Part shown: piece after piece, positions 39,277-40,794 of the stretch
Layout: each line of letters opens with the position of its first letter
How positions within the stretch are numbered: the stretch's first letter is position 1
Assembly: GCA_002471825.1 (NCBI GenBank)
Contig: DKQS01000011.1
Span: 42,712 to 106,711, forward strand
Length of the DNA: 64,000 bases
Direction: 5' to 3'
DNA from: Flavobacteriaceae bacterium UBA7302
Lineage (GTDB): Bacteria > Bacteroidota > Bacteroidia > Flavobacteriales > Flavobacteriaceae
Position numbers and translations under genes: made by a program
The notes under the pieces: model-generated
Seen by the model: the letters and a program-made list of their open reading frames with translations, nothing else
The model's database searches: none
Told to the model about the DNA's origin: nothing

Positions 39277-40146
39277 ATGACGACGGAAACGGCAATTGCA
39301 CCAGAAAGAATTAAAAAACCAAAATGGCTACGCGTAAAATTACCAGTTGGTAAGAAATACACGGAGTTACGCGGATTGGTAGACAAGTACAAACTGAACA
39401 CAATTTGTACAAGTGGTAGTTGTCCGAACATGGGAGAATGTTGGGGCGAAGGAACTGCTACCTTCATGATTTTGGGGAACATTTGTACCCGATCTTGCGG
39501 ATTTTGTGGTGTAAAGACAGGACGTCCAGAAACTGTCGAATGGGATGAACCAGAGAAAGTAGCTCGTTCTATCAAAATTATGGGCATCAAGCATGCGGTG
39601 ATTACTTCGGTAGACCGTGACGACTTGAAAGACGGAGGATCCATCATTTGGGCTGAAACTGTTGAAGCCATCCGAAGAGCAAATCCGAATACCACACTTG
39701 AAACCTTAATCCCTGATTTCCAAGGAAAAACAGCACTGATTGATCGAATTATTGAAGTGCATCCTGAAGTGGTTTCTCACAACATGGAAACGGTAAGAAG
39801 GTTGACCAGAGAAGTTCGAATTCAAGCAAAATACGATAGAAGTTTGGGTGTTTTAAAATACCTAAAGGAAAACGGAATGCGTACCAAGTCTGGTCTTATG
39901 TTAGGTTTGGGAGAAACCGAGGAAGAAGTTATTGAAACCATGAAGGACCTTAGAGGTGTTGGACTGGATGTCATCACGATCGGACAGTACTTACAACCTA
40001 CTAAAAACCATTTACCGGTAAAGGAATTCATCACGCCGGCTCAGTTTAAGAAATACGAAGAAATCGGATTGGAAATGGGCTTTATGTATGTAGAGAGCGG
40101 TTCCTTGGTTCGTTCTTCCTACAAAGCGCACAAACACGCGAGCTAG
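39277..40146 (+). CDS. lipA: Lipoyl synthase
   Basis: [20 protein letters not shown] and RSSY motifs. Confidence 0.97.
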
Positions 40147-40181
40147 TTAAAGTTTTGTGAATAAAAATACCAATTCAAATT

Positions 40182-40196
40182 TGGCACAAGTATTGA
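40182..40196 (+). promoter_or_regulatory. Sigma54-type -24/-12 promoter TGGCACAAGTATTGA
   Basis: GG and TTG at exact consensus spacing; the -12 position is A rather than C. Confidence 0.55.
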
Positions 40197-40207
40197 AGTT
40201 AGGTGGG

Positions 40208-40294
40208 TAATTACCATTTAATTGTTTTCATTGTGTAATTAATTTGAATTATTTGATTAAAAGTAAGCCACCTATCAAGGTGGTTTTCTTTTTT
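40208..40294 (+). ncRNA. Candidate ~85-nt small RNA
   Basis: Bounded by the sigma54-like promoter and a terminator; contains no + strand ORF. Confidence 0.4.
40265..40294 (+). terminator. Intrinsic terminator
   Basis: AAGCCACC-tatcaa-GGTGGTTT followed by a U-tract. Confidence 0.75.
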
Positions 40295-40305
40295 ATATTT
40301 GACAC

Positions 40306-40794
40306 ATGAAGAAAACGTTCACCTTCCTCCTATTTTTAATATCATGCAACCTAGTCGGACAAGGACTCTTTGTACCTGCGGAAGTTGCTTCAGACGACTT
40401 AAAAGCTGCTTTTATTAAAAGTAATTACAAAATGAATATCATTCATTCCTACCTTATTGCGAACTACAGGGTAGCCTCCGGGAATCCAATGACAAAAAAG
40501 TTGGGTAAAGAGAAATGCAAGTATCGAAGGCAGTTCAAGCCAAACATCGTGTATAAGATGAATGATTGCGAGGAAGGAAAAGGCAGCTTTGAAACAGTTA
40601 TTTTCCCGAAAGCGGCAATGAACAATTTAAAAAAATGGGTAGAACAAATTTATCGGACGCAACCCATGGAAATTAAAAATATTTGGTATCCAGGTACCAC
40701 GGAATACGGACCGGAACCCAGACAAGAAGGTTGCTACTATAAAATCCTTCAAGAAGAAGACCGAAGTGTTATTGAAATTTGGTGTGGTTCCTAA
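40306..40794 (+). CDS. Secreted hypothetical protein
   Basis: Signal peptide; 162 aa with several Cys. Confidence 0.7.
   Translation: MKKTFTFLLFLISCNLVGQGLFVPAEVASDDLKAAFIKSNYKMNIIHSYLIANYRVASGNPMTKKLGKEKCKYRRQFKPNIVYKMNDCEEGKGSFETVIFPKAAMNNLKKWVEQIYRTQPMEIKNIWYPGTTEYGPEPRQEGCYYKILQEEDRSVIEIWCGS

Follow-up and report, generated by a model that had tools for sequence, protein, structure and literature searches.

The 64,000-nucleotide (nt) stretch of Flavobacteriaceae bacterium UBA7302 DNA analysed here (contig DKQS01000011.1; hereafter the window) carries, in the gap between the lipoyl synthase gene lipA and a lipoprotein-like open reading frame (ORF) at 40306, what is very probably a conserved, independently transcribed small RNA (sRNA) gene of marine Flavobacteriaceae with a sigma-54-type promoter. 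The fuller reading, that positions 40180 to 40294 are the gene of a sigma-54-dependent, trans-acting sRNA that also represses the mRNA of a SusC-like gene elsewhere in the genome by base pairing, is given a probability of roughly 0.68, an estimate drawn from genome comparison and structure prediction. The evidence that carries it is the conservation of the separate parts of the gene, the geometry of the promoter relative to the RNA structure, a strand-specific complementarity to one mRNA, and the presence of rpoN and sigma-54 activators in the genome.

The gap between lipA and the 40306 gene is 159 nt long, and the sRNA promoter begins 34 nt past the lipA stop codon (Table 1). An earlier note on this DNA had pointed to TGGCAC-N5-TTGA with -24/-12 spacing, the lack of a plus-strand ORF, an intrinsic terminator, and a palindrome at the 5' end, all of which are present. 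TGGCAC occupies 40182-40187 and is followed after 5 nt by TTGA at 40193-40196, a match to the -24/-12 promoter type save for a C-to-A change at -12, and the ORF list contains no plus-strand frame of at least 30 amino acids (aa) between lipA and the 40306 gene. The element is thus non-coding, with a promoter, a terminator, and a seed complementary to a distant mRNA, as is found in the family of trans-encoded base-pairing sRNAs. A terminator scan found zero terminators between the lipA stop codon and the sRNA promoter, so lipA and the sRNA share the terminator at 40265-40294. This is the layout of 3'-region sRNAs with their own promoter (MicL/DapZ type), the terminator being common with the lipA mRNA. 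A repeat or mobile element was rejected as an identity for the region because the 159-nt sequence is single-copy in its own genome, and a minus-strand mini-ORF (MKTIKW*) was rejected because relatives share only MKT, after which sequence and length diverge. A search of 39900-40500 against Rfam 15 reached no family; the best score was 25.8 bits against a threshold of 100, to a Tetrahymena small nucleolar RNA, and all matches were far under their own thresholds and aligned chiefly to the terminator.

Table 1. Features of the candidate sRNA locus and its predicted target genes (window positions unless another contig is given)
Feature	Position	Strand	Remarks
lipA (lipoyl synthase)	39277..40146	+	ORF; conserved upstream neighbour
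Long imperfect inverted repeat, lineage-specific	40172..40250	+	promoter surroundings AATTCAAATTTGGCACAA can pair with seed
Candidate sigma-54-type promoter TTTGGCAC-N5-TTGA	40180..40196	+	-24 GG at 40183-40184; -12 element at 40193-40196
Palindrome GGTAATTACC	40206-40215	+	window sequence
Predicted sRNA transcript, ~87 nt	40208..40294	+	predicted start 40208 (+/-1) from promoter geometry; 3' end in U-run
First stem-loop (SL1), 5' end	40208..40241	+	40208-40216 pairs with 40232-40241; includes part of conserved core
Predicted antisense (seed) region	40221..40264	+	predicted to pair with SusC-like mRNA leader and first codons
Core TTGTTTTCATTGTGTAATTAATTTGAATTATTTGATTAA	40222-40260	+	window sequence; nearly invariant across genera
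Intrinsic terminator	40265..40294	+	stem 40265-40286, then TCTTTTTTAT; found by terminator scan
162-aa lipoprotein-like ORF	40306..40794	+	downstream; outside sRNA element
SusC-like target gene (predicted)	G000:C1:163772		outside window; SusC/RagA family
Tandem SusC-like paralogue	C1:159014		outside window; SusC/RagA family

A BLAST comparison of 39950-40450 with 40 relatives returned, besides matches to lipA, separate 85-93% matches to window positions 40209-40262. Matches to the core region form two classes, one lying downstream of lipA (class A) and the other at the start of a SusC-like gene in reverse complement (class B). Class A loci share a single order of parts: (T)TTTGGCAC-N5-TTG, approximately 25-30 variable nt, TTGTTTTCATTGTGTAAATTATTTGAATTAGTTGATTAA, and a variable hairpin with a T-run. 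Eighteen of the BLAST relatives keep TTTTGGCAC-N5-TTG, the core, and the terminator while the intervening sequence varies, and three further copies from the same genus were found beyond the BLAST matches. An exact-pattern scan of named genomes with a 26-nt core pattern yielded at least 126 matches on at least 120 contigs. The 102 terminator-bearing copies among the matches listed are the set to which all later counts out of 102 or 88 refer.

Within this set, GGCA(C/T)-N5-TTG stands 37-51 nt upstream of the core in 88 copies, is a near-match in 2, and is missing in 12. A T-run, 95-98% conserved, precedes GG; each of the four bases there, left free in the search pattern, is T in 81-98% of copies, whereas motif-bearing copies differ in the N5 spacer and in the bases after TTG. 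In 94 of the 102, lipA is found on the same strand no more than 600 nt upstream. By label, the carriers belong to Polaribacter, Tenacibaculum, Aureibaculum, and other Flavobacteriaceae, and the variant closest to that of the window, among the matches listed, is in L145, a Polaribacter-labelled metagenome-assembled genome (MAG). A covariance model built from sequence only, with no structure, found 128 carriers of the RNA among 151 species genomes of the genus (98 among the 106 high-quality ones), along with weaker, clearly homologous copies bearing TTGGCA(C/T)-N5-TTG(C/A) in 3 more genera (302 genera sampled).

The two structured parts are kept in form rather than in sequence. Ninety-three different terminator hairpin sequences occur in the 102 copies, yet every one of them forms a hairpin of -13 to -27 kcal/mol that runs into a T-run, with compensating changes in the stems across copies, and the 5' segment (the 5' arm of SL1) has 91 different sequences. 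Since these parts are kept while the linkers vary, the promoter motif, the core, and both structures are under selection, and the sequence between them is not. The sigma-54-promoter sRNA gene proposed in the earlier note is supported, with promoter, core, and terminator conserved in more than 100 genomes and all three carried by 88 of the 102 listed copies. The core pattern also matched four MAG contigs from outside Flavobacteriaceae, L094, L194, and L207 (Clostridia) and L148 (Spirochaetia), which have no sigma-54 motif and no terminator at the match; the three Clostridia matches look like chance AT-rich matches.

Promoter position and RNA structure agree with each other. When the first G of the GG element was taken as -25 and each predicted transcript was folded separately (88 copies), the first stem began at nucleotide 0, 1, or 2 of the predicted transcript in 79 of 88. 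From the position of the promoter one can thus predict where the structure begins at its 5' end, as should be the case if the transcript opens with a protective stem-loop. In mapped sigma-54 promoters of Flavobacterium psychrophilum, GG lies at -26/-25 or -25/-24 (PMC9723704), which puts the predicted start site in the window at 40208 or 40209. The predicted sRNA folds at -19.4 kcal/mol (z = -3.6), and five diverse members of the family fold alike, into a 5' stem-loop, about 30 unpaired nt (AUUGUGUAAAUUAUUUGAAUUAGUUGAUUAA), and the terminator. In SL1 the variable 5' arm pairs with the end of the core, UUGUUUUC(AU), and in many species this arm reads AUGAAAACAA, a copy of the target start. The seed is partly single-stranded, with a mean of 60% unpaired in minimum-energy folds. 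RNAalifold run on a MAFFT alignment gave no consensus pairs, the variable hairpins being misaligned.

The same region could instead be a structured 3' untranslated region (UTR) of lipA together with its terminator, that is, a stabiliser or processing product with no promoter of its own in which TGGCAC-N5-TTG is incidental. With no terminator between lipA and the element, lipA transcripts must include it; the synteny with lipA (94/102), the 12 copies without the motif, and an RNA contig that runs from the 3' end of lipA across the element fit such a UTR, as does a long hairpin in the intergenic plus strand, which folds at -40 kcal/mol (z = -4.6) versus -24.8 kcal/mol (z = -1.9) for the minus strand. 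However, this hairpin needs the upstream motif ATTCAAAT, which is present in just 9-14 of the 88 homologues. Pairing between promoter region and seed is possible only in transcripts that start upstream, for example by read-through from lipA, and ATTCAAAT was rejected as a universal seed-masking partner on the same count. A UTR would also not account for a motif kept in 88 of 102 copies with a T-run that the search did not force while spacer and flanks vary, for a motif-to-first-stem distance fixed within 0-2 nt, for the few copies away from lipA that still have the promoter (L054 among them), or for the antisense match of 40 bp with susC. Conservation of the promoter, at a constant distance from SL1, speaks for independent initiation and leaves the UTR explanation, which the earlier note had listed as an alternative, unlikely; what stands of it is the layout, with one terminator common to lipA and the RNA.

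Class B matches, which identify the predicted target of the sRNA, read in reverse complement ...CAATTAATTCAAATAATTACACA-ATG-AAA-ACA-AAG-TTT-AAT-GG..., where a protein with the sequence MKTKFNGILTLLLAL..FAQE.., a SusC-type receptor, begins. Other significant core matches in the genomes of relatives were solely reverse complements of this SusC-like gene start. For the window's own genome, a duplex scan compared the seed (40216-40264) with the -40 to +30 regions of 2789 ORFs of at least 100 aa. The SusC-like gene C1:163772 ranked 1 of 2789 at -34.6 kcal/mol (z = -7.5; mean -12.0, standard deviation 3.0), with the runner-up at -25.3 kcal/mol, and the best duplex scores of 12 shuffled seeds were -22.7 to -27.2 kcal/mol. 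Its tandem paralogue C1:159014 is a weaker match (rank 12, -21.9 kcal/mol). The predicted duplex comprises 40 pairs (36 Watson-Crick and 4 G-U) between RNA positions 40221-40264 and mRNA positions -34 to +11. A Bacteroidota-type -7 box, GATTTTTG, lies just upstream of the target leader, and its position suggests a leader only about 22-27 nt long, in which case pairing would cover the whole leader.

The target is present in 24 of 24 other genomes examined, mostly as two tandem copies, and in each of the 25 cognate pairs the mirror strands form a weaker duplex than the predicted strands (for example, -24.0 versus -42.4 kcal/mol). Mismatched columns show 71 G-U-compatible transitions versus 24 of the A-C type, although the genomes behind these counts are related and the events non-independent, so that a nominal p-value for them is no true probability, which tells against the pairing interpretation to that extent. 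Examples of the wobble changes are target AUGAAGACA opposite RNA UUUUCAU, and an Aureibaculum-type RNA GAGUUA opposite target UAAUUC. This strand asymmetry is predicted by RNA-RNA pairing and not by a shared DNA site. A DNA operator, bound by a transcription factor both near the susC promoter and downstream of lipA with no RNA pairing, would have in its favour that TAATTCAAATAATTA is nearly palindromic, with TAATT-N5-AATTA inverted-repeat arms, and that genera without the sRNA also conserve the susC leader. The similarity, however, passes the palindrome and continues through the start codon and 3-4 codons, and it always lies in antisense orientation between a promoter and a terminator; together with the bias toward G-U-compatible changes and the stronger pairing of the real strands, neither of which is expected of a DNA site, this makes an operator very improbable.

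A broader sRNA, one that occludes many AUGAAA(A) starts of secreted-protein mRNAs, is only slightly less improbable. The earlier note had read the core as antisense to generic AUGAAAA starts; the start codon is indeed covered, but one SusC-like mRNA is singled out, all other start regions scoring -25.3 kcal/mol or weaker, within the shuffled range. Broad action would be suggested by the complementarity of UUGUUUUCAU to AUGAAAACAA and by several MKT lipoprotein or secreted-protein genes among the top 25 (for example, C10:239751, with 16 contiguous nt). The top MKT matches, at -21 to -25 kcal/mol, nevertheless fall within the shuffled-seed range, most homologues tie up the anti-start segment in SL1, and the conserved single-stranded part matches the susC leader rather than start codons.

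The products of C1:163772 and C1:159014 belong to SusC/RagA family TIGR04056 (660 and 611 bits), and each gene is followed by a SusD-like gene. The two SusC/SusD pairs adjoin rpsL-rpsG-fusA, with no glycoside hydrolases nearby. They are flanked by proteins of 568 and 246 aa (L063 3203-4909 and 14751-15491, equal to C1:157203-158909 and C1:168751-169491) that have no Pfam or NCBIfam match, and no carbohydrate-active enzymes are encoded nearby. As a guide to the substrate, comparison with solved structures was uninformative; the best match was RagA, over the conserved N-terminal plug only.

The machinery for a sigma-54 promoter is encoded in the genome. The rpoN gene, on which the earlier proposal depended, was found as a 498-aa frame (Sigma54_DBD, 176 bits), along with two sigma-54 activators with a full Sigma54_activat domain, one of REC-AAA and one of AAA-HTH_8 architecture. 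The latter (L058 1465-2688, or C4:61445-62668) is PspF-like, with AAA+ and HTH_8 domains and no sensor domain, and lies between miaB and lptE; the former (L057 1081-2244) has a receiver and an AAA+ domain and no DNA-binding domain, and adjoins an mscS-like channel gene. In F. psychrophilum, where transcription start sites were mapped and the sigma-54 motif was validated by mutagenesis (PMC9723704), promoters of this type include those of lon (TGGCAC-AATCC-TTGA), clpB (TGGAAT-AACAA-TTGA), and a muramidase gene (TGGCAT-AGCTT-TTGT) (PMC9723704 supplement), and the regulon contains groESL, clpB, lon, and skp (PMC9723704). A strict sigma-54 motif search of the window's own genome returned 45 sites, 9 of them intergenic. 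Among these 9 are sites whose predicted transcription starts precede the dnaK start codon and that of a ClpB/ClpC-type ATPase gene by 35-38 nt; with an ExbB/TolQ-like gene included, the distances are 35-51 nt (strict motifs at C1:84121, C11:44042, and C9:12799, all on the plus strand). These motifs suggest that sigma-54 may drive heat-shock or envelope functions in this genome, as in F. psychrophilum.

Several observations weigh against the reading of the locus as a sigma-54-dependent repressor of susC. Within the window alone the promoter motif is not above chance: TGGCAY-N5-TTGH occurs once against 0.86 expected, and at least once in 56 of 100 shuffled sequences. Because the motif is insignificant on its own, the weight rests on its conservation in other genomes. 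The -12 element is TTGA, where the textbook form is TTGC (the C of GC replaced by A). That A is found in place of the -12 C in 41% of the 90 motif-bearing copies in a frequency table, and the C is also replaced in the mapped F. psychrophilum promoters of lon, clpB, and a lipoprotein gene (PMC9723704), so TTGA at -12 can be regarded as normal in Flavobacteriaceae. The 12 of 102 copies that lack the motif, mostly the first of a tandem pair, mean that another promoter or lipA read-through is apparently able to supply the RNA. The target leader is conserved also in genera in which no sRNA was found (Lutimonas, Cochleicola), so its conservation is independent of the sRNA. The RNA data are assembled contigs without 5' ends, the sRNA sequence always lying inside longer contigs: three metatranscriptome runs contain parts of the locus, with one contig spanning 40075-40740 at low depth across the terminator, and in four Tenacibaculum culture transcriptomes the RNA is within contigs of 2.5-8 kb, one contig ending at the terminator in two of the four runs, with a terminator sequence that matches Tenacibaculum discolor and close relatives. 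Such contigs are compatible with the sRNA being present or absent. Finally, the direction of regulation is something we infer.

Tandem sRNA copies follow lipA in L099, L101, L127, L131, L169, and L181 (Tenacibaculum) and also in G001:C65 16622-17086. The lipA-proximal copy of such pairs has no sigma-54 motif and bears TTTTGCAGAGTACTT, by its look a decayed -24/-12 site or a different promoter, and the two copies may respond to different signals. The SusC leader (TAATTCAAATAATTTATATA-ATG-AAAACAAAG) is almost invariant in L109, L163, and L149 (Lutimonas), L119 (Cochleicola), L098, L172, and others. Its conservation therefore has some additional cause, of which translation efficiency and a second regulator are examples, and the sRNA probably arose by capture of an inverted copy of this leader.

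The gene downstream of the sRNA was also considered as its partner, in that the element might be a cis-acting leader or attenuator of the 40306 gene, the second alternative of the earlier note. The element lies 12 nt upstream of the start region of that gene, and AGGTGG (40201-06) could compete with the terminator arm. Across the family, however, this possibility is refuted, and for the window it is the least probable of the alternatives, as just 5 of the 102 loci have a homologue of the 40306 gene after the sRNA and 41 have a convergent cbs gene there, ending about 100 nt after the core start. The 40306-40794 ORF product matched no Pfam family. The sequence TATATTTG (window 40294-40308), which ends 4 nt before the 40306 ATG, matches the Bacteroidota -7 promoter box TAnnTTTG; if used, the mRNA of the lipoprotein-like gene would be leaderless or nearly so.

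If the locus encodes a repressor of the SusC-like gene, it would be expected to work as follows. When one of the two sigma-54 activators fires, an RNA of about 87 nt would be made from the RpoN promoter just after lipA, ending at the terminator that also serves lipA. Its invariant stretch, together with the 3' arm of SL1, would match the susC-like mRNA in antisense over the full length of the short leader, through the start codon, and on across the first 3-4 codons, such that the open stretch antisense to the leader could nucleate pairing and the helix could then extend through SL1 across the start codon. The resulting duplex of approximately 35-40 bp on the ribosome landing site would block initiation, and a helix of about 40 bp would probably also be a substrate for cleavage by a double-strand-specific RNase, the outcome being lower synthesis of the SusC/SusD transporter pair. 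Translation initiation in Bacteroidota proceeds largely without Shine-Dalgarno pairing. Taken with the precedent of blocking by the sRNA FopS, described below, this makes repression the likely outcome. The genome encodes neither Hfq nor an RRM_1 (RbpB-type) protein, which fits a reliance on unusually long complementarity.

Given that dnaK and the Clp ATPase gene are preceded by this promoter type, the inducing signal might be stress on protein folding or on the envelope. A tentative extension of this idea, and on balance a doubtful one, is that the sRNA could be the post-transcriptional arm of a sigma-54 response to protein-folding or envelope stress, halting SusC/SusD synthesis. It would then be a counterpart of MicA, RybB, and MicL that does without Hfq or RbpB, using a long antisense match that starts from a single-stranded toehold and keeping the anti-start part in a self-mimicking 5' hairpin.

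Very few pairs of sRNA and target have been identified in Bacteroidota, nearly all of them in gut Bacteroides. The locus offers a ready hypothesis: an sRNA that is highly conserved and for which prediction gives a sigma factor and one clear target. Polaribacter and Tenacibaculum dominate carbon turnover in algal blooms, include fish pathogens, and have SusC/SusD transporters among their most abundant proteins. If the hypothesis is true, a dedicated RNA switch for one transporter pair would control transporter levels post-transcriptionally and tie sigma-54 to them. It would also be a simple test case for antisense RNA in a phylum that uses neither Shine-Dalgarno-based initiation nor Hfq.

A full-text literature search found no description of this RNA, and the core sequence is absent from the published table of 88 F. 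psychrophilum RNAs (PMC9723704). Antisense action of an sRNA at a translation start, a sigma-54-driven sRNA gene, and an sRNA acting on susC are each already known; what is unusual is that the pairing is very long and spans the leader entirely, that the 5' hairpin is self-mimicking, and that the promoter, in Bacteroidota, is of the sigma-54 type. Non-coding transcripts driven by sigma-54 (SM4) promoters, with mapped start sites, have been described in F. psychrophilum as Rfp1, Rfp36, and Rfp45 (PMC9723704). They come from the same family, Flavobacteriaceae, but differ in sequence from the RNA described here, and no target is known for the Rfp RNAs.

On the side of the target, the closest relative in function is the FopS family (with GibS) in Bacteroides thetaiotaomicron; FopS base-pairs beside the start codons of susC homologues and blocks initiation in vitro (PMC11697453). 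FopS is likewise a Bacteroidota trans-acting sRNA of 65-90 nt with an intrinsic terminator. It differs in having a housekeeping sigma-ABfr promoter, 14 copies per genome, and a short 5' seed that targets many polysaccharide-utilisation loci; the RRM protein RbpB binds it and counters its action, and it is confined to Bacteroidaceae. The sRNA here has a sigma-54-type promoter, 1-2 copies, and about 40 nt of predicted pairing over the leader of one conserved SusC pair, a separation made by description, the R1 seed sequences not having been compared. With this promoter type, a genome that lacks RRM_1, and a distribution in Flavobacteriaceae, it falls outside the FopS/GibS family.

Among proteobacterial sRNAs, Qrr1-4, CrcZ/CrcY, GlmY, and NrsZ are transcribed by sigma-54 from -24/-12 promoters under the control of enhancer-binding proteins. 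The sequences, phylum, and targets of these RNAs are unrelated to those described here, and CrcZ and GlmY sequester proteins rather than act by antisense pairing. MicA, RybB, and MicL of enterobacteria, which depend on sigma-E, are stress-sigma sRNAs that shut down abundant outer-membrane proteins. They belong to another phylum, are driven by the extracytoplasmic function (ECF) factor sigma-E, and are Hfq dependent, whereas Hfq is lacking here, and for the sRNA here a comparable stress role is suggested only by the promoter type of dnaK and clp. Like the sRNA following lipA, MicL has its own promoter, within or behind the upstream gene, and a terminator common to that gene.

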